Below are positions 1 to 23,208 of a stretch of DNA of 64,000 nucleotides, one piece after another. A program made the position numbers and the translations under genes. Origin of the DNA: Treponema sp. Lineage in GTDB: Bacteria > Spirochaetota > Spirochaetia > Treponematales > Breznakiellaceae. The stretch spans positions 5,355-69,354 of the forward strand of contig WQXQ01000001.1 in assembly GCA_009784775.1 (NCBI GenBank), given 5' to 3'. Position 1 is the stretch's first letter. Every line of letters starts with the position of its first letter. The notes below the pieces were generated by a model that worked only from the letters and a program-made list of their open reading frames with translations, had not been told where the DNA came from and did not search any database.

Positions 1-1
1 A

Positions 2-1420
2 AACAGCACGCGTATCTCACGGAATGTTGCGCTTATACGTGAAAAAACAAAAAACTTTGTGGAAATTCTGTATCCATTGGAAAATGAAACTATACAGGGC
101 ATCTTTAACTTGTATGGTTACGCCGGCGGCGCAGACAAAGCCGCAACCGTAATAATAAAGATAAACGGCGCTGATCAACTGATGAGAAAGGTTGATGACT
201 CTGGATTTTTCCGCATCTCATTGAATGCCAGTCATTTGAATTCGGGCAAAAATACAATAAGTGTGTACAGTCATTTTGGCGGATCTGACGAAATTGAGTC
301 GAATACACAAACCATCTTTTACAACGCCGAAGGTCCATGGATTACCATCGACAGCATGAATGTCGGCGATTTTGTTTTTGACAGACCTTATCTTTACGGA
401 CGGATGGGGTATAACCTGACTGCAGAAGAGCAGCAAATTCTTGCCGACAAAAAAGCCGACAAAAAGCAACGCGCCCTTATTCGGGCGAAAACGGCAAGCT
501 ATGCGGAAATCAGTTTTGACAACGGAAAAACTTTTGTTAAAGCCGGCAGAGGCAGAGACAAGGAAACAATGGATTACCGTTACCGGCTGGAAACCGGCGA
601 TATGGCCGAAGGAATGCACTATATCCTTGTTAAAGCAACAATGAAAAACGGCGAGATCGCCACAACACGGATGCTGGTTCAGGTAGACAAAACCCCGCCT
701 GTAATCCGGCTTATAACTCCGGAAGTAAGCGGCCGATACAACAAGAAAGTACCCTATTCCGCGTTTGCGTCCGATGACATTGAACTTGTCAGCCTGGAGT
801 ACCATTTACGCAAGGGTGACAAAGCGGCTTATGGAGTACCCGGCTTTATTCAGGGATTGTATATTGAAGGAATTATTCCGCCGTTTATAAAACAGATATC
901 CAACGATGCGCCGGTAATGCCTTTTGGAGGAGGGGCGACTTACACAGACTTTGGTCTTGGTCTAAGTTTCTTTGACGACAACGTAAAGATACAGGCCCAA
1001 TACGGATTTTTGACGCAGAATATATGGGAATCCATGGGCGGAACAGGCGCGGTACGTTACGGCGGTCATGTGCTGGGATTGAAACTGCTTGCAAGCATTT
1101 ATACCCTGCCGTTTGGTTCATTTGCCGGCCCCGACTGGGAATGGCTGTCGGCATCCCTTGCGTTAGGCGCAAACTTCTCCTTTTTTGATATTGGCAATAA
1201 TGGTTACACACAAAGCGGTAAATCAACCTGGATGAGCGCGCTTTTGGCCCAGGTAGAATTCCCCAAGGTAACCATTCCAAAAAGGACATTCCTGAGAACA
1301 TTCAGTTTGTTTACCGAAGGCCAGCTTTGGTTTGTACCAACTGACGTAAATGCGGATAACTATAAAATTGAAACCGTTATTCCGCATATAACCGTGGGAT
1401 TAAGAGCCTACATTTTCTAA
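2..1420 (+). CDS. 5'-truncated large envelope protein: Ig-like repeats followed by a predicted C-terminal outer-membrane beta-barrel
   Basis: Frame is open from base 2 (NSTRISRNVAL...), so the gene starts upstream of the window. Ig-like segments (DKTPPVIRLITP...SDDIELVSLEY) precede amphipathic strands ending in aromatic ITVGLRAYIF. Confidence 0.7.
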   Translation, partial: NSTRISRNVALIREKTKNFVEILYPLENETIQGIFNLYGYAGGADKAATVIIKINGADQLMRKVDDSGFFRISLNASHLNSGKNTISVYSHFGGSDEIESNTQTIFYNAEGPWITIDSMNVGDFVFDRPYLYGRMGYNLTAEEQQILADKKADKKQRALIRAKTASYAEISFDNGKTFVKAGRGRDKETMDYRYRLETGDMAEGMHYILVKATMKNGEIATTRMLVQVDKTPPVIRLITPEVSGRYNKKVPYSAFASDDIELVSLEYHLRKGDKAAYGVPGFIQGLYIEGIIPPFIKQISNDAPVMPFGGGATYTDFGLGLSFFDDNVKIQAQYGFLTQNIWESMGGTGAVRYGGHVLGLKLLASIYTLPFGSFAGPDWEWLSASLALGANFSFFDIGNNGYTQSGKSTWMSALLAQVEFPKVTIPKRTFLRTFSLFTEGQLWFVPTDVNADNYKIETVIPHITVGLRAYIF

Positions 1421-1440
1421 CCATGAGGTTGGAGGTATTT

Positions 1441-4400
1441 ATGTTTGATGCAAGAAAAAAATCATCATTCGCGAAATTGAATGCAATCTGCCTGGCGGTA
1501 TTGCCTGCATTAGCCGGATTTATCTTTACTGCATGTAATGTGCCTATGGGTATGGGCAAGCCCGTAGACACAACCCCCCCGGTAATTTCCATTCTCAGTC
1601 CGCGGGACAACGATTTTGTGCGCGGCGTAACCCAGGGCGAGCCTATACGACTGGCAGGTGTCACTTACGATGATTTTGGAATAAGTCATTTGACCGTAAG
1701 ACTGATAAATGTCGCAACAGGAGAAGAGTTTACTCCGGGTATCAATGATTTTTCATATACCATTGAAGATGACGGCGTATGGAAAGCTGCATTACACCTT
1801 CCCGGAGAAGGCGTAACCGAGTACCGTATCAGGGTAATAGCGGTAGACTTTTTCAAAAACGAAGGCGCGGATGAAGTAACCGTCAGGGTCGACATAGTTG
1901 CGCCCTGGATAAGTAAAGCCGTGGTTATACGTCATTCAATATTTGAAAAAGAACTGAAAAACCTCGATTTTTTTGAACAAGAGCTTAACTTCCGCTCTGA
2001 CAGCGGAAACACAGGGATACAGTTTAATGACATTGACTATTTCCAGAACGAAGCGTTTAACATTAAGCTCGAAATTGGTTCCAGTTTTGACAATGTTGCG
2101 GCTTCACGGCTTGATGTATACAGCGAAGATCACGTTAAGCTGAACCCCGAACCGCTGGTACCGCTTCCAAACCAGCCGATGTATAACCCGGAATGGAGAA
2201 TAACGCATGACCAGATGATAGAATGGGATGCAAGATACGAATGGGGAGCGCATTATATCTATTTTGTTGCCATGGCATGGAATACCACTTCCTGAGACCC
2301 AACTGCCAATGAAGGCAAGGGCGGCACCAGTTACGGGGAATTTCCCCGCGAACAGTTAGTCCACGGCATATGCTGGTATCCGGAATCGGATTATCCCCAC
2401 ATAAATGTAAATGCGAATATTTCGAGCGGTTTTATTTCGCTGCTGCCGGATAATGATCTTGCCATTGAATTTTACGATGATGACAAAATATCAGAAATTT
2501 ACGCGGCAATAATCCCGAAAGAAACTATGGATACATTACGCGGCAGTTTGTCTGAAGCCGCTTATATAGAACTGCTTGGAAATGATCACCTTAAACGGGA
2601 AGAAATTATTAATACTTTGGCTCTTGACCCTCTGTTTGTTCCTTCAGGCAGCCCGGACGAACGAAGCCAGATGGTTCATTTAAGAACCAGTGGTATTCCG
2701 GGTGAATATCGCCTTATTGCAATGGTGCAGGATTCAAAAAGCGGCGATAACCTTGATATATGTAATCCCCCGTTGTGGACCGTACATCCTCCGCTGAGAA
2801 TTCAGGTTCAGGATCCCAATGATCCCATTATCATGATAGAAAATCCCATTACGGAAAATATTTTCCCGGTATTAACCGAAGGCAAAAAATTCTCAATATC
2901 GGGCTTTACTATTGACCTTAATCCAAGCGGAATCGAAGCAATACAGATTGCCTGGATTCCTGCCGCTTCCGGCCTTGAGTTTGATGATGCAAAAAACGCT
3001 CTTGTATCTGCAAAAGATGAGCCGATCGGCAATTTCCCCATAATACAGAGCAACGAAATAAAGGTTTGGCGGCCGCAAAGAGGCGACAACATTTTGGTTA
3101 CGCTTAACAATGTCGACTATATGCGCAATGATTTCAGCCAGGAATTCCACATAGCCGATGATTTTATCTACAATGGCAGGACCGAAAACGCCAATAAACT
3201 TTTTATCATCCATGCCTATAAAGGCGACAGAGATATATTCAAAACATTCAGGCTTACCGCAAACAGCGGCAGGCCGGTCATTGAAGTGATTTTCCCCTAT
3301 CGTGACATGATGGTTCATGATACCAATCAGGATTTAAACCTGATCATGAGGGTAAGCAGCGTTATCGATCTGGATGAAAGCAGCATAAAAATCAGTGATA
3401 AAACGACCGGTAACACGAATGAAGCGCGAGGGTTCTCTAGCGATGTCGTTTTCGAAAACGGCGAATATAAAAGGACTATTACATCACAGGCTTTTGCCGA
3501 AAACGATATTAGAGAAGGAGCGCGCCTTACCTACCGATTTGAAGCGGCTGATTTAACCGGCAACTCTCAAATAGTGGAACGAAACGTCATTATGTCAAAT
3601 CGTCCGGCAGTGGTTTATGTAACTTCTTCCAACGCGCCGGGCAACTATGGCATTAACAGAGAACTGCTTTTTGAAGTGGTATTCTCGCTGCCGGTAAGAG
3701 TAGACAAACAAGGCGGAACAGGACCTCGATTGAAACTGTACTTCAACGATCCTGGCACCGGCGAACCTGCAGCGGATGCATACGCGGATTATGTGGATAG
3801 TCCCGCGGGAAATACGATTGTATTTACCTATAGAGTAAGAGAAGGAGACGATTCTCCAAAACTCTACACTTCCTATCGCCCCATAGAACTCAATGGTTCA
3901 ACAATAGTAACCACTGAAGCAGACGGCGGAGACGCAATAATAGAATTTGGCGGGCCGGGCAGCGGCTTACAAGACAGGGTTGCAATAATGGTGGACGGCA
4001 TTCGTCCCAAAATTACAAAAGCCGGCTTTAGCCTCCCCAACAACGGCGCGGGTGAATTTTATTATAACATTGGAAAAACCGTAACGCTGGAATTGTACAC
4101 TTCGGAACAGGTGCGTATTTCCGGCACCCCAATGGCCAGAATTGGCTACAACACAAGTACCGGACTGCAAATAGTGAATGCTTCTTTTTCAAAGGTTGAC
4201 CATAACGAGGCAGGCGGTGAAACCAGCAGCACGCTGTTCTTTACCTGGATGATTGATGATGATGATGTTCCGGAAACGCAATTGAGCTGGACAAGTCCCT
4301 GGTTTGTGTTTGGCGCATCCGATTCCATCACCGATATGGCAGGGAATGGAATTGATATTCGTACAAGCACCATGGATCTGCTTACGCCTGATGATCTTAA

Positions 4401-7221
4401 CGGCGCCAATATCAACAAAACAGCGTATATAATAACGCGGCCTCCTGCTCCCCCGGTATTTACTCTCTATAGGAGTCTAACCTTTAATGGGGAAAACATA
4501 CTTGCAGGTGATACGGTCGCTGTCAATTCTGAAATTTACATGACGATGGACAGAAACGGCGAGGCAAACACCACCATCATGTATTATTCTCTTGAAGCGG
4601 GAAACAATGGGCAAGTGATAAACACAGGCAGCCATCGGTCTATTGAGGATAAAAATGCAGCGCATAAAAACAGTATTTTATATATTCCTTCGGAGTATAT
4701 AATTACCGGCTGGCAGATTGACAGGGCAGGTAACCGTTCAAACAATGCGGCAGAGAGAAGCGTCATTATTAATTCCCGCGCACCGGAATTGGTTGACATA
4801 ACCTGTACCGATCCGGACGGCGAATATACTGCCGGAAGAACCCTCAGTTTCAGGCTGGTTTTTTCACGGAAAGTTATCGCGGAAAATACCGGCGCAACAC
4901 TCACTCTTGAGGGAACCGTTGGAGGATATGCCGATTCGATGACTATTCCTCTGACAGTGGCAAGCGAACCTGTCGCCGATACCGCTCTGGTTTTTTCGCA
5001 AGAGATTCCGGAAAATATGCGGATGAAAGACATTAAGGCAACAAGGATCGTTCTTACCGGTGTGAAAGACGCCGAGTATGGAAATGATCTTAAAGAATAT
5101 ACCAGTACCATCAGCGAAGAAGACAATGTTCGGCGGCCGCTGCCAACCACCGCACCCAACCTTAATCGTCCCGGATTGATTATAGATTCAATAGGACCAA
5201 GGATTGAGCAATATAACCCAGGTACATCTACCGGCACTGCTCTTGGCACAGGCCAGTATTCCAATGGCGGCGTTATGCAAAACGTAACCATTTCGAGTGA
5301 CGGCCTGATTAGAAATGCCAGGATTACCCTTACATTTGACAAAGATGTATGGGCGCAATCGGGCGGAACCATTACCATAAAGCCGTGGGGAGATTGGGCA
5401 ATTCCTCCCATCCTGACGGTCGAAGAAATGGACGCGCTGTATCATTCACCGCTATTTGGCGATAACAAAATTGAGTATCAGCGAATATTAAAATGGATAG
5501 ACGCCAATGGAATTCCGGAAAGGTTTGACTCAAATCTGACCACTGCCTTTGGGTTACGCACAAGGTACAATTCCTATATAAATACTACCCACGGCCTCAG
5601 ACAAAATAGTGGTGGCGTTGGTACAGCGCGTCCTGATACGAGGCCAAAATGGGTGCTGGCTTTTGACAGGGACCTGTACGACAATATGGAGTATTTGCGG
5701 GATGTCTTTAACGCCGCAGAATGGAAATGGCAGACCATTTCCGCTGCCTCAGGATCAGTGCAGATAAACCCGGCTGATCGCAGAGAAGTAACTATTACCC
5801 TGCCCGAACCCCTGCAAAAGGGACGTATATGGGAAGTTACCATAAGTGATGGCGCTTTCAGGGATCGGGCGGGGAACCCCTCGCAACCTATTGTGGAAAG
5901 CACCAGAACGGGCCTGCATTATCGCTTCTGGTCACCTGGCACTGCCGATCCGGTCATTCGGGTTGACCGTTATTCTCATGGTGATAATTACCATGGGCTG
6001 CCCGCTTCGTACAGGGGCGACTGGAGTACAATACCCTATATTGATACCAAGGTGCGTATTGATTGCGAAACACCGGGCGCTACCATTCACTATGATACGA
6101 TTAGAACAAAGTATACATTGGCGCCGGATGGAAGCACAGCCAATACCAGCAACGCGTTTACCACGACTGTCAATACAGCAACTGGTTTCTTTAATCATGA
6201 TAATTTTCCCTTTGGTTCCGGTTATACCAACAATACTATCGGCGATGCCCGAGCTTTAGCAGATAATTATTTGAGAAACCTGTTGATACCTATGAACGAT
6301 GAAACAAACAACGCAATAATTCCGGTCACTGCACAAAATGGCGCTATCTTATGGACAGATTTAACCACTAAAGGTAATGGGCTTGTCAATGACACTACTT
6401 TAACGACTAACGGCCGTGTGTACATCACGATAAGCTCAAATGGAACTGCATCATTAACGGCCGGAACTCCGGTGTTCGAGGTCATTACTCTTACAGCTCC
6501 TGAAACAGCCAGAGGGCGTTTCTTCTATGTCGGTGATGCGTACCGGGTAAATAATGATAATGGCACAGAAAACGACCGTAATGCCGGCACCAATACCAAT
6601 GCGGCGCTTTTCACCGGCCGGCGTGATTATGTCACTGCGGCAGCAAGGAAAAATGCAGTAACCACCGGAACAATTGCGGGACCCGACCTTGATGTGTCAT
6701 TCCCGTCTTACGAAGGCGTATTTAAAACCACAGTGCTTCACCGCGAACCCGCAAACGGAGCATACTGGCTTTTGATTCAGGGTTTTGATACGCCTGTTAC
6801 CCCCAGTACTCCGGGTTTTCCGTTACAGGAATATGTAGCCACTCCACCATCTCCTTACAACAAACTGGAACACACCTACTTCAGCAAACAGGCTTATCGC
6901 ACAGGCGCGCTGCCAAGCAGTGATCCCGCGGGCATTTGGCCTGATGCTACTAATGTGAGTAATAATGTCCTGCGATATGGTACTAATACTCCTGGTGTAC
7001 CTTTACCGCCCCGTGTTGATAATCATATTTGGGTAACCTGGGATATTGTTTCGGACTGGTACATGAAAGGCAGAAACAGGGGTGTAAATTTTGAATCTAG
7101 TGACACAGAACCCGGTGGTAATATTCAGTATCACCGGCTTCAAAGGGGCGATGCAAACTATGGCGCTGTTCTGGCAACCTATGGCGCGGTTATCTACCGT
7201 TACCGGCAGGATTTCCATTAA
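1441..7221 (+). pseudogene. Giant Ig-repeat lipoprotein (~1926 codons) interrupted by one in-frame TGA at 2293-2295 (nonsense allele, sequence error or readthrough)
   Basis: GGAGGT RBS at 1431-1436, ATG at 1441, lipobox FIFTA-C. ORFs 1423..2295 and 2527..7221 share a frame and 2296-2526 has no stop (DPTANEGKGG...IPKET-M). The sequence is colinear with the paralogue at 7258. Confidence 0.7.
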
Positions 7222-7257
7222 TAATTCTGCCATCGGCAATAAACAAGGAGACAAAGC

Positions 7258-10200
7258 ATGAAAACCGGAAAACTGTATATTAAACTTTTTGCTGTATCCG
7301 CATTGGTTTTTCTTACTCCATTACTGTTAACCTGTGAAACACCAATCGGACTTGGTTCAAAAATCAGCATAACGGGACCGATTCTTTCAATTACAGGCCC
7401 TACTCCGGTAAGCGGCCAAAAAGATGTACAGGTAGGCAGTTTTTTTACGTTAGAAGGTTTCAGCACGGGTGATACTGCCGCAACGCGCCTGGAAATACAG
7501 ATGACGTATTTTGACAGTATAACAAGTACATTGGTACCGCTGGGACGGGAATGGCGTTATGACCGTTTCTGGCAGTGGAAAAAAGACAGTGATGTTGCCT
7601 GGCAGCGTTATACGGAAAATGATTATAAGGACTCTGGGTTACCAGCGCCTTCATGGGTAGTTTCAGGCCATAATGTTACATGGAGCCTGCCGATAGCGCT
7701 TAACGGACTTCCAAAAGGGGACTACTTTTTTACGATCAGGGCATGGAACGCCACCGGAAATTCGGACGCAAATTCCGTGCAAAAATTAAAGGCGGTCCAC
7801 GATAACGAAAATCCCGAACTTAAAATAACAAACCTGAACGTATTACGTTTTGGCACAGGCTTTTTCACGCCTGAACCGCCCGAAGAATTCGATACCTATG
7901 TCTATGAGCCCATACATAATTGGGGAGCCACTGCTACCTATATTTCCAACTGGATAAACAATACACTGGAATTTGGATGGAATATTGATAAGCCAATAAT
8001 CGGCAATTACAGCCTGATGATTGAAATTACCAATAGACATAATTTGTATACCAATGCCGGCAAGGTTCTGTATTACCGGTATGAATGGAATGGCGCAGGA
8101 GTTTTACCTCGTTATGGTATGTTTACCGACAGGGCAAATCCTCCTGCAGGTTATACCAAAGTCGGCAATGCCATACCTGTCTCCGAACTTGTACCGCGTG
8201 ATCTTGTTACCGGACAGCCAACAGGAGCAACGCATCCTGAAAACACGTATGTTCCCATGCAGATAGTTGTCTGGTTAAAGGATGGCAACGGGAATGAAGA
8301 CAATGTACATAGCAAAGGGTGGTTTGCATACTGGCCCAAGACAGATGAACCTTGGGTACATATAGCTTTTGGTTACAAGGAAGATCCCAATAGAGAAACT
8401 CCCCTTAATGCGCCAAATCTGGCTTTTATCTGGAGCGGCACAACTAATGACAGAAGTATCGCGTATGACAATACCGGACTTGATTCACTGTCATGGAAAC
8501 TCTACAAGCTGCCTGAAAACAGCCTTGAGCCAGTAAATGATGGTGTGCCCGGATCCAAAGGTTCAAGAAATAATCCATGGGAAGGAGAGGTGGGATTTCC
8601 GGACAATGGAAGAGAGAAACACTGGGACTTTGAGGCAAAATCCGAATTTGGTACCGGATTTTTCAAAATCATAGTGACCGTAAAAGACATTCCTCATGGG
8701 AAACAAGGCGTATACACCGCCTATTTTTCCATTGAGTCCAATGCAACTCCCACCATCAAGAACCGGGAACTATTATCTCCTTCCATGACCGATGCTCTTT
8801 TGGGTGATGATGACCGGGGAAATTTCCTGATAAAGGGCATAGCCCAAATAGAGGACAGCGACACTATCGGCGTCAACGCTGCCAGCGTAGAGCGAGTCAC
8901 TATAGTATGGATTAATCCACAAAACCAAAACAGAGCGATGGAAAGTATACTGGAATACAGTGACCGGAATTATGGAAACTGGCGCAAGGTTTTGGAAGAA
9001 CCGCTCACAAATGGTTATTGGCAGGATCCAAACGGCAACCGTATATGGGAAGTAGCAGCCATTGACTGGGTTGCGAGTACTGATGGTAATAATAACGGCA
9101 ACGATCAGGAAGATTACTATTTTGAGAAACAGCTTAATATTTTTACCGATCTTGACATTGCTCCGGGAAAGAATCCGTCCGGATCGCAAACCTTCCTTAT
9201 CCGCGTACAAAGTAATGAGGTGGGAGGTAAATCATTAGCCTCGGTTGAAAGGTTTACCCCACAGGGAGACAGTTCCGATCCTGTACTCACGATAGATGAA
9301 ATTGTGGTTTATAAGCACAACAGCAGTACCGGAAATTATGAGGAAAAAATATACTCGAGCATATCCGAAGATGATTTCGAAATGATTTCCACGATAAACA
9401 GAAATGACAAAATGAAGATAAAGGGAAGCTGGAATGATAATTCCCGTGAAAAATGGAGCGGCCTTGCCCCTGCGGTCTTAAAAAGTTATTTCAATGATTT
9501 TTCGATCACATGGAACGGTGAACAAATCAACATTGACATGGAAACTTTACCGGGCAGCTATTTCGATGTAAACGGAAAATGGGAAACTGGTGAGTATGTG
9601 TTTACAGACGGAAATACAGACCCTATTGTTTTTCTAAGCGCCAGCATTACCGATCATAACAATAACCGCGGAAGCAAAGACATAACCCTGTTTTTGGAAA
9701 CTGACAATCCAACCATGATCCGTATTTCCAGTATTACCGGCGATGGAGAATACGGAGAAAACAAGGATACGAACCCAAATGTGTTTGGCATACAGAACTA
9801 CATTGATATTTTCCTTGAGTTCAACAAACACGTACAATTCTTTGAAAACAGAGGGGCGCATCCTTACTATCCTCCCAATCCATTAAAAGTCCCTTATCTG
9901 GAATTGAATAATGGCGGACGCGCCTTTTATTTTGCTGAAAATGGCGACACCAGAATCATATTCAGGTACTTTATAAACGGCATACCGGATCCCGAATTCT
10001 TGCCTACCGCAGTAAGCGGTTATGGCGGAGACTCGTCAAATGGCAGACTCAATGTAGATAGAATTGTCTTTTCTGATGAATATCCGCAAACAAGTCTGGT
10101 AAGCGTTGACGGCGGCACAGCGGTCATTATTCCCGTAAACGCTGTATTTAACCCAAGCAGTTTGCTTTCTCTTGCGGGCGGAAAAAATCTGGTTATTGAT

Positions 10201-13200
10201 AAAGTCCCGCCAGTGATAGAAACAATTGTTACCACCGCCGGGAGCCTCATACCCCACGGCGATGGCAGCCGCATTTACATCATGGTTAATTTCAACAAGA
10301 CTGTTGTCATTCCTTCCGCCGCAAATGCGGAAAATTTTTATCTTAACCTAAAAGGCGGAAACCTTACAGAAAAAGGCGCAAAGGCCATATTTGACAATGT
10401 TGCGGGAGCCGCAAGCATTACCTTCCGGTATGATGTGGAAGAAGGGCATGACACCAGTGAATACGGAGAATATTTAAGCATAGATTCTATTACTATAGAC
10501 GAGTTTAATATTACGGATATAGCATGGAACACTTTTGATCTTGACGCTGCCAATAATTCCCTCCCGAACGAAGGAAGATTGAACACTAATCTTACCATTG
10601 ACACTGTTGCTCCGCAGATTCCATCGATTACAGGTATAACAGCCAACAGAAGTTATTATGAGAATACAAGTTTCAATATTACCGGACTTGAAAGCAGGAA
10701 TGTAACTGTAGAATATTGCCTTGATTATGATCCTTCTAATCCGGAAAACGCAATATGGGTTACGGTACAACAGTCAATATACCCCATCCAGGGTAATACA
10801 ACAAACCATTATTACATCAACAATATTCCCCTGACCATTAATGGAACATACCATATTGCGGCCCGGCAGCGGGATAATGCGACAAAACCAAATGTATCCG
10901 AAAATCCGGAAGTTGCAAATGTCGTAGAATCGGTAATCGTTGACAAGGGGCCGCTGCTCACAAGGCTTGGTTCAAGCACGCCGGACGGCATCTATGGAGA
11001 TGGTGATACTATTGATATAGACCTTATATTCCGCATACCGGTATATCTGCCCGAACAGACTATTTCCGGTTCAACTGCATCTCTTACCATGCGCAATATG
11101 AGTTCCGGCAGTCCCATTCCCACAGCTGCGCTTAAGAGCATTTCCCCGGATAATAAAACATACACTTTCAGCTTTACAGTCAACGGCCACAGCACCGATC
11201 GTCTTGATGTTGCCAGTCTTGTCATGGGCAACTTGCAATTTTATGACGGCCCCAACACAAGTAACATACTTGTAAATCAATGGATAAATATTGCCAATGT
11301 GCCGGCAGACGCATATGGCTACAGACTTCCAAAATCCATCGAAATTATGTCGGGAACCCCTGAAAGAACAGTGATAGCGGTTAACGATGATGAAATACGC
11401 ATAACATTTAACCGTGATATTTACCGGGGCGATACGCGGGAAAAATTATTAATTAAACAAATTGCCACAGGCTACCGTATCCCGGTTGTCTTAACAGAAG
11501 AACGCTGGGCGGAGCTTTTCATTGGCCGCTCAGATATTACTGGTTTTACCGATGTACAATGGCGGGGTATTGGAAATCAGCTTTACCAGCGGGGGACAAA
11601 CGGAGCCAGTGTGGGAACGGGCAATACCCTTGTATCTGACACTACCATAAAATATGTGCTTAACTATAGTATTGATACAAGTGACAATGGTATGGGTCAT
11701 ATATCGGGTATAACACCTGCACTTACATACCAAACTTTAAGGGACAGCCTCAGAACCGCAGAAGCATTGAGTTTTTACGCTCTGGACAAGGAAGTTGAAA
11801 TTGAAAACATTACGGTAGATGGACAATTAAGACCAAGGCTGCTGAAGGTTTCACTTGCCAACTTTGATGATCTGATGATAAAGGGGGCGACTTACCAATG
11901 GGCTGTACCCAATGGTTTTGTCAAGGACTTCCTGGAAACTCCCAATGGCGGAAGCATTTCCGGTTATGATTCAACGATGACTTCAGGCGATCCTGAAAAT
12001 GCCGCCCATAACAACAATGTACATAGACTTCCCGTTTCCGGCATTGAGGAACCAGTTATCAGAATTAACAAAGGGCAGATTGAGCAAATTATTCCTGTTG
12101 GCGGTCAACGCCAGGCACACCAACCATTAAGATCAGAAGTCAAGATAGATTGCCGGACTCCGGGCAGTGTTATGCGATACAGGACGCGGCAAACTACCGA
12201 TAGTGTAGGACGCTTAATTATGCGTAATATTAACCTTACTATGTCTGCTAATTACAATTATTGGAATTGGGATACTCTCAGGCATCCAAACATACCTTTT
12301 CTTCTTCCGCATCTGGGAACTCAACAGCAAAATCAAGGGGGGATAGATTCTTTTGAAAGAACCAAAAGACGCCCTCAAAGCGGTAATATCTCCGCACCAT
12401 TAGTTTCCGGAACATATGCAAACGATGAAATGAACTATTGGGTACCTATGGGCAATTGGCCCGAATGGATAAATCTGGCTCCCAATTACACCGCTCCCTT
12501 TACGATTGGCACTGGCAGCTACAATGACGGAGGCATGGAAATTCACATTCATGCGCAATCCAGAAGAGCTGATGCAGGAAACTGGGAAGACGTCGTGTAC
12601 GCTTATGAAGCGGCCTACCGTTCGGTATTTGCATTTAATAATACAAATCTCAACAATAATAACTGTAATAGAAATATAGCTTCCGGATCTGGCGCAGCCA
12701 CTGTTCTTCCCGGTAATCCCCCTACATTTACTGAAAATACCTCTGCATCATATAGCGGCAATCCAGATATTGCAATTCGTGCCCGTATGTATATAAGAGG
12801 CGGCGATTCCACCAGTGGAGAACCTTCCATACCCGATTTCCCCATAGCGCGTGACCGGTCGCTGTCTAGAAAAGCCCGTCTTATGACACCTCTTAGTATT
12901 CCCGGCAATAGCGCCTTGGGTAATTCAGCCAACGGTTACAGCAATTTTATAGACAATTCATTTATCCCCGCCAGCTATCAGTCTCACGGTCATTATCTGT
13001 GGGTTTGGGTTACATGGGGCGTGAATGTATACGCATATATTGATTTCTTTTCGGGACTGATGCACCAAACAGAATCCTACCATACAGAAACCAAGGATTT
13101 CTACGGTGCATTTATACCCAGCAAGGAACATTATCCGGTAATACCGGGAAGGACCACGGTGGTTGAAACCAGAGGCGCCTATAACCTCCAGGCCGATGGC

Positions 13201-13263
13201 GGTCATGCTCCGTTCCCATACCTTGGTCCGCCAGTGCTAAGTCCTGCGCCTACGGACAGGTAG
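7258..13263 (+). CDS. Giant (2001 aa) Ig-repeat surface lipoprotein, paralogue of the upstream gene
   Basis: AAGGAG RBS, lipobox LLLT-C then ETPIGLG. Three DGxYG...F.Y.V..G Ig-like repeats, D..AP..P motifs, and a C-terminal VKIDCRTPGS module shared with the upstream protein. Confidence 0.8.
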   Translation: MKTGKLYIKLFAVSALVFLTPLLLTCETPIGLGSKISITGPILSITGPTPVSGQKDVQVGSFFTLEGFSTGDTAATRLEIQMTYFDSITSTLVPLGREWRYDRFWQWKKDSDVAWQRYTENDYKDSGLPAPSWVVSGHNVTWSLPIALNGLPKGDYFFTIRAWNATGNSDANSVQKLKAVHDNENPELKITNLNVLRFGTGFFTPEPPEEFDTYVYEPIHNWGATATYISNWINNTLEFGWNIDKPIIGNYSLMIEITNRHNLYTNAGKVLYYRYEWNGAGVLPRYGMFTDRANPPAGYTKVGNAIPVSELVPRDLVTGQPTGATHPENTYVPMQIVVWLKDGNGNEDNVHSKGWFAYWPKTDEPWVHIAFGYKEDPNRETPLNAPNLAFIWSGTTNDRSIAYDNTGLDSLSWKLYKLPENSLEPVNDGVPGSKGSRNNPWEGEVGFPDNGREKHWDFEAKSEFGTGFFKIIVTVKDIPHGKQGVYTAYFSIESNATPTIKNRELLSPSMTDALLGDDDRGNFLIKGIAQIEDSDTIGVNAASVERVTIVWINPQNQNRAMESILEYSDRNYGNWRKVLEEPLTNGYWQDPNGNRIWEVAAIDWVASTDGNNNGNDQEDYYFEKQLNIFTDLDIAPGKNPSGSQTFLIRVQSNEVGGKSLASVERFTPQGDSSDPVLTIDEIVVYKHNSSTGNYEEKIYSSISEDDFEMISTINRNDKMKIKGSWNDNSREKWSGLAPAVLKSYFNDFSITWNGEQINIDMETLPGSYFDVNGKWETGEYVFTDGNTDPIVFLSASITDHNNNRGSKDITLFLETDNPTMIRISSITGDGEYGENKDTNPNVFGIQNYIDIFLEFNKHVQFFENRGAHPYYPPNPLKVPYLELNNGGRAFYFAENGDTRIIFRYFINGIPDPEFLPTAVSGYGGDSSNGRLNVDRIVFSDEYPQTSLVSVDGGTAVIIPVNAVFNPSSLLSLAGGKNLVIDKVPPVIETIVTTAGSLIPHGDGSRIYIMVNFNKTVVIPSAANAENFYLNLKGGNLTEKGAKAIFDNVAGAASITFRYDVEEGHDTSEYGEYLSIDSITIDEFNITDIAWNTFDLDAANNSLPNEGRLNTNLTIDTVAPQIPSITGITANRSYYENTSFNITGLESRNVTVEYCLDYDPSNPENAIWVTVQQSIYPIQGNTTNHYYINNIPLTINGTYHIAARQRDNATKPNVSENPEVANVVESVIVDKGPLLTRLGSSTPDGIYGDGDTIDIDLIFRIPVYLPEQTISGSTASLTMRNMSSGSPIPTAALKSISPDNKTYTFSFTVNGHSTDRLDVASLVMGNLQFYDGPNTSNILVNQWINIANVPADAYGYRLPKSIEIMSGTPERTVIAVNDDEIRITFNRDIYRGDTREKLLIKQIATGYRIPVVLTEERWAELFIGRSDITGFTDVQWRGIGNQLYQRGTNGASVGTGNTLVSDTTIKYVLNYSIDTSDNGMGHISGITPALTYQTLRDSLRTAEALSFYALDKEVEIENITVDGQLRPRLLKVSLANFDDLMIKGATYQWAVPNGFVKDFLETPNGGSISGYDSTMTSGDPENAAHNNNVHRLPVSGIEEPVIRINKGQIEQIIPVGGQRQAHQPLRSEVKIDCRTPGSVMRYRTRQTTDSVGRLIMRNINLTMSANYNYWNWDTLRHPNIPFLLPHLGTQQQNQGGIDSFERTKRRPQSGNISAPLVSGTYANDEMNYWVPMGNWPEWINLAPNYTAPFTIGTGSYNDGGMEIHIHAQSRRADAGNWEDVVYAYEAAYRSVFAFNNTNLNNNNCNRNIASGSGAATVLPGNPPTFTENTSASYSGNPDIAIRARMYIRGGDSTSGEPSIPDFPIARDRSLSRKARLMTPLSIPGNSALGNSANGYSNFIDNSFIPASYQSHGHYLWVWVTWGVNVYAYIDFFSGLMHQTESYHTETKDFYGAFIPSKEHYPVIPGRTTVVETRGAYNLQADGGHAPFPYLGPPVLSPAPTDR

Positions 13264-13269
13264 TGAGTG

Positions 13270-13292
13270 CGAGGGGTACTTTGTACCCCTCG
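13270..13292. terminator. Hairpin between convergent genes, probable bidirectional terminator
   Basis: Perfect 10-bp stem CGAGGGGTAC-TTT-GTACCCCTCG between stops at 13263 (+) and 13299 (-). No long U tract. Confidence 0.6.
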
Positions 13293-13298
13293 TGACTT

Positions 13299-13652
13299 CT
13301 ACACATGAACCCCAATGGCTTCGCGAATGGAGTCTACCAGGTTTTTCCTGTCGGGGAGTTTTCCCATAATGCCAGGGATTTCAACTATTAACGGATAACA
13401 ACCGGAGAGCTGCCAATTGATCAGGTATTCATCCAGCCAGTTGGCGGCTTCTTCGGTTACAATCAGTACACGACAGCCTTGACCGTTAGGCAGCGAATCA
13501 GGTAAAGCGATACCAGCCTCTTCGACCCAGCCTTCGGTGATGCGCCTGAACACTGCGGCAGCTTCTTCCGCGTCATATACGGCCGTTCCTTCAATGCCGA
13601 TAAAACGGAAGGCTGTTACCAGCTCCGGGTCACCGATAATGTAATAATCCAA
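13299..13652 (-). CDS. atpF: V/A-type ATP synthase subunit F
   Basis: YYIIGDPELVTAFRFIGIEG...LIVEIPG...IREAIGV, the subunit F signature. TTG start, in the operon position after K. Symbol follows V/A-type nomenclature. Confidence 0.85.
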   Translation of the reverse strand: MDYYIIGDPELVTAFRFIGIEGTAVYDAEEAAAVFRRITEGWVEEAGIALPDSLPNGQGCRVLIVTEEAANWLDEYLINWQLSGCYPLIVEIPGIMGKLPDRKNLVDSIREAIGVHV

Positions 13653-13662
13653 TTGAGAGAGC

Positions 13663-13983
13663 CTACAGAATCAGTATCAACAGAGCAACAAGAAATCCCC
13701 AAAGACAGATTCCTTCAGCCAGACCGACATAGGGCAGCGCTTTTCCCGAAAGCTCCGGGTTTTCGCTCATTGCGCCCATTGCCGCAGCGCCGATACGCCC
13801 AACCGCAATGCCGCCGCCAACGCAGGAAGCTCCCACCGCAATAGCTGCGGCAAGATACCGCCACATTGCAGGCGCACCATTGCCGGATGCATCGGCGTTT
13901 TCCGCGCCTGCAATTTCCTGGGCAAATGCTGCAACACCCAAAATCAGAAACATTGCAATAACCATTAGCACTCTTCGTTTCAT
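13663..13983 (-). CDS. atpK: V/A-type ATP synthase proteolipid subunit K/c (single hairpin with N-terminal signal-like extension)
   Basis: GGGIAVGRIGAAAMGAMSENPE...GLAEGICLWG, with the carrier Glu in helix 2. Confidence 0.9.
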   Translation of the reverse strand: MKRRVLMVIAMFLILGVAAFAQEIAGAENADASGNGAPAMWRYLAAAIAVGASCVGGGIAVGRIGAAAMGAMSENPELSGKALPYVGLAEGICLWGFLVALLILIL

Positions 13984-13993
13984 AAAAAACTCC

Positions 13994-16015
13994 TTACTTG
14001 TTAAAACGGAACGGCGAAAACGCTACCCCGGTACTCGTGAAAAATTTACCAAAAAATTCATAATATTGCAGGCGCATCACCTGAATGGCAACAATCAGTC
14101 CTTCCAGCAGAATGATAACCAAGTTTCCAAAAACCAATACAAGCAATGCCGAAACAGAACCTGCCACAGTGCCGGTATTGGCCAGGTCCTCGGTAAAACG
14201 GAACACCACAAAAGCCAGTATAGCATGAGACAGGGCAAAGGCTCCAACACGAAGGAAACTGGCAGTGTTCGAAAAATAATTCGATGCGGTTTCCATCATT
14301 TCAACAATGCCTTCCATTATGAATGCCATAAGACCATGTTCCAGTATGGGCTGCGTACGGGTAATACAGCGCCAGATAACCGGACCGAAAAAAATACAGA
14401 GCAGCGGGATACACAAACCGGCAATATCAAAGAACTCAAAGGTGACACCACGCCCCCCAAAAATACAACGCAGGCCAATACATATCGCATACCAGAAAAA
14501 CAAAAGGCCAGCCAAACCCGTCTTGGTAAAAAATGCCTCCCTATACTTTTTCAGTATACAACAATTGACAATATTAATAAGCAGTCCCAGTGAATTAATG
14601 ATAATCCCTATGCCTATGGTAAAACCAAAAAAATAAAAAAGCTTTGTTATACTGCCGCCCTTTTCCGCCAAAGGCAAAATCGTCAAAATCCTGTCCATGG
14701 GCTGACCGGTAAGAGCGGCGGTAATTGCCCTTGTAGGGGCGATTAACAAGTGTTCACTGGTAAACATTTCGCCGGTAAGAAAACCCATAACCATTGAGGC
14801 AATACCCACGGTAACCAATGGAATGGAAAATTTACTGAATCGGGCAAGCTGCTTCAGGCCGTGTTTGCCGGCAAGCAGTCCCAGCAGCAACAGTACAAAA
14901 CCCTGGCCCAGATCACCAAACATAATCCCAAAAAGCAATGTATAAAAAAAAGCGACCAGCGGCGTTGGATCAATGGCCCCGTATGGCGGCGCGCCGTAGG
15001 ATAACACCATACCTTCAAAGCCTTTTACAAAAGCGCCATGTTTCAGGGAGACAGGTACTTTTTCGCTGCCATTACGCACTTCGGGAATTTCATTGGGATT
15101 AAAAACACGGATAGCCGTTCTGCCGCCGGTCATGCTTGCAGTATCTGCGGCAAGCTGCGAAATCATATCGGCGGGAACCCAGCCGGAAAACAGGTAAATG
15201 CTGGAAGTGCTGGTAAGCTGCGATTTAAGCCGCTCAACGGCAAGAACCATAAACAACAATGATGCCAATTTTTGCAGGGCTGCCTGAAGCTCATCCCGCA
15301 TCTGTATTTTTTCGCCATTAATTTTTACAAAATCACGATCAACGCCATCAAGCCGCCGCTGGAGTCCTTCAAGCAATTCAGAAGGCACACCCTGATACGC
15401 TTCGGGAATTGCTATTATGGTAAATCCGCATTTTTTTAATTCGGTATCCAGGGCAAAACGGCCTTTCCGGGAACTTGCCGCCAAAACCCGATCATCTCCC
15501 AAAGGGACAATTACCGCGCGATTGACAAGCCGTTCTTTCAGTTCAGGGAGTTCCGCCGGATCAAGATGCCCAACCCGCAAGGTCAAATATGACAAATGAT
15601 CCAAATCCGAAAAAGGCGCATTCAAGTTGGCGAATGCGCGCGCTTCATTATAGGCTTCTTCGATATGCTGCCGTTCCTGCCGGACAGCCAGTTCCCTTGC
15701 CTTAAGTACATCAATCGCAGCGCACAGCTTTTCCGCCAGAGCTTTAGCCCGGGATTCAGTCTGGTCCTCAGCCGTTTCTCCACACAGGGTACTGTCCGCC
15801 GCCGGTTCGGTTGGCAGCTCTATTTCCAGAAATTCAGCGCAAGCGTGCAATCTGTCCAGCAGTGTTTTTATCCGCGCAGAACCATCGCTTTCCGTATTAT
15901 CCTCAGCATGGCTAAAGTGCATTGCTCCATTGCGGCCAAGGTATTCGATCACATTATCAATATCGCTTTTGAGCACTGTCATTTGCACACGTTTCATCTT
16001 GCGGGGGTAAATCAT
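13994..16015 (-). CDS. atpI: V/A-type ATP synthase subunit I (a)
   Basis: MIYPRKMKRVQ start, DPTP...FGIMFGDLGQG, SFLRVGAFALSH, RLQYYEFFGKF. Confidence 0.93.
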   Translation of the reverse strand: MIYPRKMKRVQMTVLKSDIDNVIEYLGRNGAMHFSHAEDNTESDGSARIKTLLDRLHACAEFLEIELPTEPAADSTLCGETAEDQTESRAKALAEKLCAAIDVLKARELAVRQERQHIEEAYNEARAFANLNAPFSDLDHLSYLTLRVGHLDPAELPELKERLVNRAVIVPLGDDRVLAASSRKGRFALDTELKKCGFTIIAIPEAYQGVPSELLEGLQRRLDGVDRDFVKINGEKIQMRDELQAALQKLASLLFMVLAVERLKSQLTSTSSIYLFSGWVPADMISQLAADTASMTGGRTAIRVFNPNEIPEVRNGSEKVPVSLKHGAFVKGFEGMVLSYGAPPYGAIDPTPLVAFFYTLLFGIMFGDLGQGFVLLLLGLLAGKHGLKQLARFSKFSIPLVTVGIASMVMGFLTGEMFTSEHLLIAPTRAITAALTGQPMDRILTILPLAEKGGSITKLFYFFGFTIGIGIIINSLGLLINIVNCCILKKYREAFFTKTGLAGLLFFWYAICIGLRCIFGGRGVTFEFFDIAGLCIPLLCIFFGPVIWRCITRTQPILEHGLMAFIMEGIVEMMETASNYFSNTASFLRVGAFALSHAILAFVVFRFTEDLANTGTVAGSVSALLVLVFGNLVIILLEGLIVAIQVMRLQYYEFFGKFFTSTGVAFSPFRFNK

Positions 16016-17040
16016 GACGTCACCTCAAGCATTGCAAATACGTCTTTGCCGCTCATCCCAAGTGCCAAACCTTCCGCAATGCTAATCAGCAGATCTTCCT
16101 CATAGTGTTTGAGTTTGATATAGCAAAAAATGGAACTAACCGAAAAAGGCATGAACCGGAAACAGCGCCGGGACAAACGGTAAATATACCGCGAAGCGGC
16201 ATTTTGAAAATAGCGGGGATCAACGGTCCACTGCTCCCCCGCTTTTTGTGGATTGAGCAATTTTTCCCATCGCCAGCCATTCCAGGCCGGCCGGGAATCC
16301 AGCGGAAACCGCAGGGATTTACGCGCTTCTGCAGCAAGGGAAACTGCTTCGTCGTGCTGGTTTTGGCCGAACATTTTCAGATCCATGAGATACCTTGCCG
16401 TCTCATCTTGATCTTTTTTGAAATAGGTACGCAGCCGCAATGCCCAAACACAGTTACGCAGGGAAATTTCTTCAGCAAGAATGCGCTGGGCATAGAGACG
16501 ATCGGCGGCGGGAAGACCGCAGATACTTTCGGTCAGCAGTGTATAGTACTGTCGATCCAGCGCTGCTTCGATAGCAGTAAGATCGGCGGGTTTAGGGTCT
16601 TTGGGAAACTGCGTAAGAATAAAGGCAAACTCGGTGCCGGCAAGCATTGCGGCAAGATTGGGATATTTGGAAAAACGCACAGTGCTGAAACGGCCAATGT
16701 CATTAAACGCGGGCGGAGCCGTTTTTTTACCGGCGGCAATATGGTGCAAACAGGTTTTGAGGCCGGCATATTCGCAGGAACGAAGCTGCAGAACAAGCGC
16801 CTGCGGCGGAATGGAATACGAATTAAGTATAACACGTATATGCCGGACAGTCCGCTGCAGAATCCTTTGTTCAAGATTGGCTAACAGCTCCTTAACCGGC
16901 AGCTCCCTAACTGCTGCGGGAAAAACAAGCCGGTCCAACTCCTGCAATGAACTCATCTTTTCCAGTGCAGCGATTCGCTTTCCGATAAAAGACTTGCCAA
17001 TAATACCGCATGCTTTGGCATAGGCAAAGTCCGGCGTCAC
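16012..17040 (-). CDS. atpC: V/A-type ATP synthase subunit C (V0D/AC39 family)
   Basis: FAYAKACGIIGKSF start, EEISLRNCVWALR, YIKLKHYEEDLL. ATGA overlaps with both neighbours. Confidence 0.8.
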   Translation of the reverse strand: MTPDFAYAKACGIIGKSFIGKRIAALEKMSSLQELDRLVFPAAVRELPVKELLANLEQRILQRTVRHIRVILNSYSIPPQALVLQLRSCEYAGLKTCLHHIAAGKKTAPPAFNDIGRFSTVRFSKYPNLAAMLAGTEFAFILTQFPKDPKPADLTAIEAALDRQYYTLLTESICGLPAADRLYAQRILAEEISLRNCVWALRLRTYFKKDQDETARYLMDLKMFGQNQHDEAVSLAAEARKSLRFPLDSRPAWNGWRWEKLLNPQKAGEQWTVDPRYFQNAASRYIYRLSRRCFRFMPFSVSSIFCYIKLKHYEEDLLISIAEGLALGMSGKDVFAMLEVTS

Positions 17041-17345
17041 TCCTCTTCCTCCACAAGCCTGTTCATCAAGGCAGAAAACTGGTCCATATTAACCGCAACG
17101 GAATTTATTTTTTCTTTATATGCATCCAGTTCTTTTTGATACTGCTGCCGTGCATGATCTTTGGATTGCCGTAAATCGCTTTCCAGTTCCCGGATTTTCC
17201 TGTGGTAATGTTCCTCGTATGCGATACGGTTTTGTTTTTCCGCCTCAAGCACCCGCCTATCCGCTTCTGCCTGAGCATTGTCTACCAATGCGGCAGCCTC
17301 GGATTCGATTTCAAGCAGATGGCCAAGGACCTCGTCGTTATGCAT
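17037..17345 (-). CDS. V/A-type ATP synthase peripheral stalk subunit G/H-like
   Basis: 102-aa charged coiled coil (LLEIESEAAALVDNAQAEADRR) overlapping the subunit C start. Confidence 0.65.
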   Translation of the reverse strand: MHNDEVLGHLLEIESEAAALVDNAQAEADRRVLEAEKQNRIAYEEHYHRKIRELESDLRQSKDHARQQYQKELDAYKEKINSVAVNMDQFSALMNRLVEEEE

Positions 17346-17846: not shown

Positions 17847-18257
17847 TTACTCGGCAGCCCCGGTTTCCAAAACCTCGTCCGGAATGTCGTTCAGAATAAA
17901 ATCGCTTTCCGGCATATCAAAAAGATTAATATCCAGCGGCGGATTTATCTCATCCTCCAACCAGTTACCAGTATCCGCTTCTCTGGAAAGCTCTAGGCCT
18001 TCCCTTTCAACCCCTGCGCCGCCGGGTGTCCGGTTGAGCAAGGCCAGGCCTAAACTAATAATGAGGAAAAGTATCCCCAATACTGTTGTAGCTCTGGTGA
18101 GCACATTTCCCGAACGGGAACCAAAAGCAGAGCTGCTGCCACCGGCAAAAATTCCGCCCAGACCGTCCCCTTCTTCGGTTTGCACAAGTACCAGCAATAT
18201 AAGCAGGATGGCGATAATAACGAAAAAAACCAAAAGAACCGTACTAAGAATACCCAT
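17847..18257 (-). CDS. secG: Preprotein translocase subunit SecG
   Basis: LVLVQTEEGDGLGGIFAGGSSSAFGSRSGNVLTRAT, two TM helices and an acidic tail. Confidence 0.93.
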   Translation of the reverse strand: MGILSTVLLVFFVIIAILLILLVLVQTEEGDGLGGIFAGGSSSAFGSRSGNVLTRATTVLGILFLIISLGLALLNRTPGGAGVEREGLELSREADTGNWLEDEINPPLDINLFDMPESDFILNDIPDEVLETGAAE

Positions 18258-23060: not shown

Positions 23061-23079
23061 TGTTTTCGCTCCTTAAGAA

Positions 23080-23198
23080 TGGGGAACGGGGACTGGGGAC
23101 TGGGGACTGGGGATAGCTGTTTGTAAGCATAACGTGTTGCTTTTACGCTCAGATTACGAACAACAATCCCTAGTCCCTAGTCCCTAGTCCCCAGTCCC
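23080..23198. repeat. Palindromic MITE/REP-like element with heptamer-repeat arms (GGGGACT)n ... (TAGTCCC)n
   Basis: Inverted arms of tandem 7-mers plus inner TGTTTGTAA/TTACGAACA arms. Flanked by direct repeat TAAGAA at 23074-23079 and 23199-23204. Confidence 0.75.
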
Positions 23199-23208
23199 TA
23201 AGAACTTA

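Follow-up and report, generated by a model that had tools for sequence, protein, structure and literature searches.

A 1926-codon lipoprotein gene in the 64,000-nucleotide stretch of Treponema DNA analysed here (the window) is interrupted by a single in-frame TGA, at a codon for which its aligned homologues have tryptophan. The interruption is best explained as a very young and ordinary opal nonsense allele, which is probably still segregating with an intact version of the gene in the sampled Treponema. A probability of roughly 70% can be given to this explanation. The assembly that holds the window comprises 2.40 Mb in 153 contigs and is 92.7% complete. The features of the gene are as follows.

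1441..7221, plus strand: interrupted lipoprotein gene of 1926 codons, with one stop at codon 285.
1441..1536, plus strand: lipoprotein signal peptide with lipobox Cys32 (FTAC), read from the sequence; the Cys column is conserved in 30/31.
2293..2295, plus strand: in-frame TGA where the family has an invariant Trp (TGG); the substitution is at base 2295.
2527..7221, plus strand: product of 1564 aa, the longest that a restart could give, with neither a Shine-Dalgarno (SD) motif nor a signal peptide.

The gene starts at ATG 1441, with GGAGG 7 nt upstream, and its frame ends with the TAA at 7219-7221. The TGA at 2293-2295 is the sole stop within this frame, and 1641 open codons lie beyond it. The initial annotation of this DNA had described a lipoprotein gene with one in-frame TGA and the same number of open codons after it, and both the frame and the conserved lipobox agree with that description. 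The N-terminus has a basic n-region, a hydrophobic core and a lipobox of the spirochaete type (...FTAC), whose Cys is nearly invariant across the family (30/31 sequences).

Translation could resume only from a start codon beyond the stop. The first in-frame ATG, GTG or TTG in that region is the ATG at 2527, 77 codons on. It had been said to lack an SD motif and a signal peptide, and this is correct: the sequence upstream of it, CCCGAAAGAAACTATG, holds no Shine-Dalgarno motif. The public protein set lists the gene as two separate genes of 290 aa and 1564 aa (P0008). A proper annotation would instead give one 1926-codon gene with one internal stop, or a polymorphic gene.

A protein search with residues 1-600 of the query recovered about 30 full-length homologues of 1877-2072 aa, which are about 36-58% identical to the N-terminal part of the 1441 product. 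They are metagenome-derived, and the sole named source is 'Treponema sp.'. No near-identical full-length protein was found in this search. Sequence searches of Pfam, NCBIfam and PDB gave no match except a sub-threshold one to Big_5. An AF2 model of residues 31-500, with the TGA read as Trp, has a mean pLDDT of 85.4 and forms a chain of beta-sandwich domains, and its best structural matches in the PDB are tandem Ig, cadherin and surface-glycan-binding-protein (SGBP) arrays. The product is thus a predicted surface lipoprotein of tandem Ig-like domains. The stop at 285 is placed between model strands 241-251 and 273-282, within one confidently modelled beta-sandwich domain. A product of 284 residues would therefore end inside the fold.

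The ancestral state of the interrupted codon can be read from the homologues. In two independent MAFFT alignments, Trp occupies the stop column in 30/30 homologues, and the column is invariant inside the motif AW..(S/A/D)W. Because Trp is encoded solely by TGG, the stop corresponds to a single G-to-A transition at base 2295. The remaining 30 Trp codons of the gene are all TGG, so that one TGA stands against 30 TGG. Clear orthologues without internal stops are present in three genomes of the same genus (G013, G007 and G012), at 44-45% identity. The initial annotation had proposed comparing the codon in orthologues, and none of them keeps a stop there.

The two genes that flank the interrupted one are transcribed in the same direction.

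1..1420, plus strand: 3' portion of the co-directional gene upstream, whose open frame of 1467 codons begins before the window, at C1:2371.
7258..13263, plus strand: downstream co-directional lipoprotein gene of 2001 aa, a remote relative that is syntenic in relatives.

The upstream gene has sub-threshold matches to Ca_tandemer and to an OmpL47 barrel, with hints of Ig repeats. For the products of both flanking genes there is no Pfam match above threshold, no NCBIfam match and no PDB sequence match. This downstream gene had been taken for an intact paralogue whose sequence appears to align with the region flanking the stop. BLASTP fails to recover such an alignment, and the orthologues from other genomes align far better. 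Pairwise BLASTP between the two products gives E = 1e-4 at best, with weak collinear matches, and the two genes do not match each other in tblastn at E <= 1e-4. The 7258-13263 gene is thus a remote relative only. Nor can the interrupted gene be called one variant of a set of adhesins, as had been suggested. There is no variant family, since the genome holds one copy of the 1441 gene and one copy of its remote neighbour.

Matches to the 1441 gene are found in 8/24 same-genus genomes. In G013 and G007, an orthologue of the 2001-aa gene (37-39% identity) lies directly 3' of the 1441-gene orthologue. In G007, an orthologue of the upstream gene (60% identity) also directly precedes it. This synteny, together with the occurrence in 8/24 genomes, places the 1441 gene in the middle of a cassette of three genes, conserved yet accessory, of which the second and third encode lipoproteins of about 1900-2050 aa. 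The gene family and the cassette appear to be restricted to Treponema-like gut spirochaetes and are uncharacterised.

The age of the lesion was examined by a leave-one-out count of departures at the 142 columns where all the other members of the family agree. This count replaced dN/dS because the closest relatives are 45-58% identical and synonymous sites are saturated. The 1441 gene departs at 3/142 columns: the stop itself, L706T and P1263S. Downstream of the stop it therefore has 2 departures, compared with 0-10 (median 2) in intact homologues. At the resolution of this count, the 4.9 kb past the stop show no further stop, no frameshift and no relaxed constraint. The claim that 5.8 kb of gene carry no other lesion is borne out in the sense that there is no second stop or frameshift. 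The lesion must then be very young, or the gene must still be under selection. With an invariant Trp replaced, same-genus orthologues intact and no decay downstream, the evidence favours a recent nonsense switch-off, one of the explanations that the initial annotation had offered.

A near-identical strain would provide an independent view of the same site. None was found in the collections searched. The metagenome_contigs collection was scanned with N at 2295 and then with the right flank only; it yielded no same or near-identical strain, and its records of the present strain are possibly masked.

A nonsense mutation presupposes that TGA is read as a stop. The genome uses the standard code. 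The initial annotation had drawn this conclusion from genes ending in TGA at 16012 and 18322, and both of these minus-strand genes do end in TGA. Genome-wide, TGA ends 583/1871 stop-to-stop frames of at least 200 codons (~31%). The factor that recognises this codon, RF2 (prfB), was found with 496 bits against a cut-off of 370. The prfB match lies at C107:1730-2764 and covers model positions 8-353, in a single 355-aa open frame without internal stops. The anticodon UCA is absent from the 36 tRNAs found by aragorn. There is a single tRNA-Trp, with anticodon CCA and a canonical 5-bp anticodon stem.

A reassigned code should interrupt more than one gene. The genome was scanned for pairs of same-frame ORFs, each of at least 150 codons, that are parted by one stop; an initial scan for TGA interruptions had been too noisy, as it counted adjacent same-frame genes. 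The scan returned 218 pairs, 23 of which have no start codon within 40 codons past the stop. All but one of these candidates (22/23) are shadows of a longer ORF in another frame or on another strand, which leaves the 1441 gene as the only true interrupted gene in the 2.4 Mb. A reassigned or ambiguous code, in which UGA would stand for Trp (table 4 type) or Gly, is rejected on these grounds: RF2 is kept, TGA is a frequent terminator and is not frequent inside genes, there is no tRNA-Trp(UCA), the tRNA-Trp(CCA) has a 5-bp stem, and a single gene is interrupted.

Recoding of the TGA as selenocysteine would leave the code itself unchanged. Some termite-gut treponemes make selenoproteins, and the gene resembles bacterial selenoprotein genes (UGA, SECIS, SelB, tRNA-Sec) in that an in-frame UGA is followed by a nearby small stem-loop.

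2298..2322, plus strand: small hairpin after the stop; its fold is no better than that of shuffled sequences.

The hairpin noted by the initial annotation does exist, but its stability does not exceed that of shuffles (-16.0 vs -15.5 +/- 2.8 kcal/mol, z = -0.18), and 74/200 shuffles fold at least as stably. It starts 2 nt past the stop. In this 92.7% complete genome, the best match to selB reaches 185 bits, below the cut-off of 242, and is a 404-aa EF-Tu-like frame. The best match to the tRNA-Sec model has 43.7 bits, below the gathering score of 47, and aragorn calls those places tRNA-Ser. Among homologues the residue at the site is always Trp, and neither Cys nor Sec occurs. Selenocysteine is thus rejected as well, and recoding of the TGA in either form is effectively excluded.

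Alternatively, the stop may be functional and leaky. Near-cognate decoding by tRNA-Trp(CCA) would then produce the short form together with a trickle of full-length protein, and the stop would be kept as a dosage-reducing variant. UGA is established as the leakiest bacterial stop, and tRNA-Trp as its usual misreader (cf. PMC13092985, PMC10570021). Since the stop is at a Trp position, readthrough by tRNA-Trp would restore the wild-type sequence, and the junction peptide that spans the stop, with Trp read at 285, would be ...AWNTTSWDPTANEGK. Basal misreading of UGA by tRNA-Trp would in this way regenerate the exact wild-type protein at some low level. The 1641 undamaged codons downstream can be cited in favour of a leaky stop, but they are equally expected of a very young knockout.

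Known cases of UGA readthrough by tRNA-Trp include the Hirsh suppressor (G24A) and a tRNA-Trp(CCA) with a 4-bp anticodon stem, which reads UGA efficiently (PMC13092985). The 1441 gene is like them in having UGA at a Trp position, where misreading would likewise restore the native residue. It differs in that the tRNA-Trp has the canonical 5-bp stem, in that neither the context nor any structure favours readthrough, and in that the stop is not conserved. G follows the stop in 91/310 natural TGA terminators, so that there is nothing unusual about TGA-G as a terminator in this genome. None of the orthologues is interrupted at the site. Programmed readthrough, which had also been proposed, finds no support in a gene with a chance-level hairpin, an ordinary TGA-G context and a stop seen in no relative, in a genome with RF2 and with neither selenocysteine machinery nor a special tRNA. 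A functional leaky stop is thus improbable. A specific form of it is likewise improbable: a maintained hypomorph, in which misreading would supply a few percent of the normal amount of the wild-type lipoprotein of 1926 residues. If true, the population would hold a 'high' (TGG) and a 'trickle' (TGA) state of the protein, and base 2295 would be a dosage switch that can be slowly reversed, possibly under pressure from, for instance, phage or the host or protist surface.

Logan contigs suggest that the opal allele is still segregating. Logan builds on 31-mers, discards singleton k-mers and reports only contigs >150 bp (PMC12424806). The source evidence is a single sample with a word depth of about 8. 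It is represented by two termite gut metagenome runs, X1 and X2, which have near-identical contig sets and are probably one data set filed twice; a search for RNA runs gave none. In both, contigs of the present strain (0 mismatches) span 1400-2273, 2296-3809 and 3826-8613. No contig of this strain covers the two intervals in between.

2274..2295, no strand: gap of 22 bases between own-strain k=31 contigs; putative variable bases 2274 and 2295.
3810..3825, no strand: second gap of the same kind, 16 bases; putative variable bases 3810 and 3825.

Neighbouring contigs elsewhere overlap by 30 nt (17289-17318 and 18177-18206), as expected at the branch nodes of a k=31 graph. At 8603-8613, own-strain contigs overlap by 11 nt rather than the usual 30. 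Branching of the graph at 2274 and again at 2295 would leave arms of 82 nt (2244-2325), which fall under the length limit and so go unreported. The share of indexed words, 0.95, matches the loss of 52 k-mers from a 1001-base query.

Only two such gaps occur in 16 kb (1400-17318), giving four putative variable bases. Thus, the probability that one of them would coincide by chance with the third base of the stop is about 1 in 1000. All four are at third codon positions, as expected of real strain variants. Base 2274 is the third position of ATG (Met278) and 2295 that of TGA; 3810 belongs to GGA (Gly790), where any base is synonymous, and 3825 to TTT (Phe795). From the contig break points we infer that 2295 has two or more alleles, with no fewer than two reads for each: A, as in the assembly, and most plausibly G, which gives TGG. 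The stop allele probably segregates with this other allele in the sample. This polymorphism is read from the contigs of one sample at ~8x.

These contigs also bear on base-call error, the remaining explanation that the initial annotation had listed. The TGA could be an artefact of assembly or consensus that is present in no or trivially few molecules, the metagenome-assembled genome (MAG) having taken a wrong or minority base while the gene itself is intact, with TGG. A depth of about 8 in a single sample, a MAG of 153 contigs and the undamaged appearance of the rest of the gene all speak for this, and so does the independent contig graph, which is unresolved exactly at 2295. However, Logan drops singleton k-mers, so a random read error would not break contigs (PMC12424806). 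For breaks to arise at both 2274 and 2295, two or more alleles must each have been seen two times or more. Were A absent, a G-bearing Logan contig should run through the site, and none does. An artefact is therefore unlikely, while retaining some probability.

At 80% likeness, contigs with G at 2295 can be retrieved. With 8-14 mismatches in 50-83 nt, they represent diverged orthologues that belong to other members of the gut community, and are uninformative on the allele of this strain. The putative SNP pairs are 21 and 15 nt apart, in 16 kb otherwise without breaks. Sites so close together suggest short tracts of recombination more than mutations that arose independently. A target of a diversity-generating retroelement was considered for the clustered variable sites and rejected, because there are two sites only, both at third codon positions and in the N-terminal region. 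More generally, a segregating allele can be detected from the places where k-mer contigs break, even where no raw reads can be consulted.

Repeat-switched phase-variable surface genes offer another comparison. They too have a small early lesion, with both states apparently coexisting. The lesion here is a substitution in the non-repetitive sequence ACCACTTCCTGAGACCCA; there is no repeat tract and no high-frequency reversion.

The opal allele most likely arose and acts as follows. In one lineage of termite-gut Treponema, a very recent G-to-A change at 2295 turned Trp285 from TGG into the opal codon TGA. RF2 would terminate translation at 2293-2295, and the product would be a 284-residue lipoprotein stub ending within a beta-sandwich domain. 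The 1926-residue surface protein would be lost from the cell. A restart at ATG 2527, if any, would yield a protein that lacks an export signal. The middle gene of the cassette would then be naturally knocked out by this allele, which could at most be a strong hypomorph, and the 1441 gene has presumably lost its function. The stub would be expected to misfold and the surface protein to disappear. Rho-dependent polarity on the downstream gene, 7258-13263, is possible.

TGG to TGA is the commonest route to a nonsense allele. The 1441 gene has a stop one base from a conserved Trp codon, intact orthologues and a genome that uses TGA as a terminator. Young opal knockouts of accessory surface genes are alike in the one-base transition, the intact orthologues and the lack of decay. 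The accessory status of the gene (8/24 genomes) and a downstream part without a start or export signal are further points of likeness. Nothing essential differs. What is unusual here is the size of 5.8 kb, the position between the two other cassette genes and the polymorphism suggested indirectly by the contigs. The biological weight of the finding is small: it adds one more case of TGG to TGA, the gene being an accessory one for a surface protein and its host a gut spirochaete that is uncultured. The uncharacterised gene family and the three-gene cassette are a more interesting object than the stop.

Two other places in the window stand out in the same contig data. Between 24382 and 26352, depth is 0 at 99% likeness, with flanks at depth 9-10. 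The cause may be the removal of conserved-gene contigs for their similarity to human DNA, in which case the sequence is not truly absent. A palindromic repeat element lies at 23074-23204, where a Logan contig (depth 6.4) joins 23112 to 23167 and skips 54 nt. The join represents either a shorter form of the element or a collapse of the graph across its inverted arms. Word depth at the element rises to 113, which shows that the sample contains it in multiple copies.
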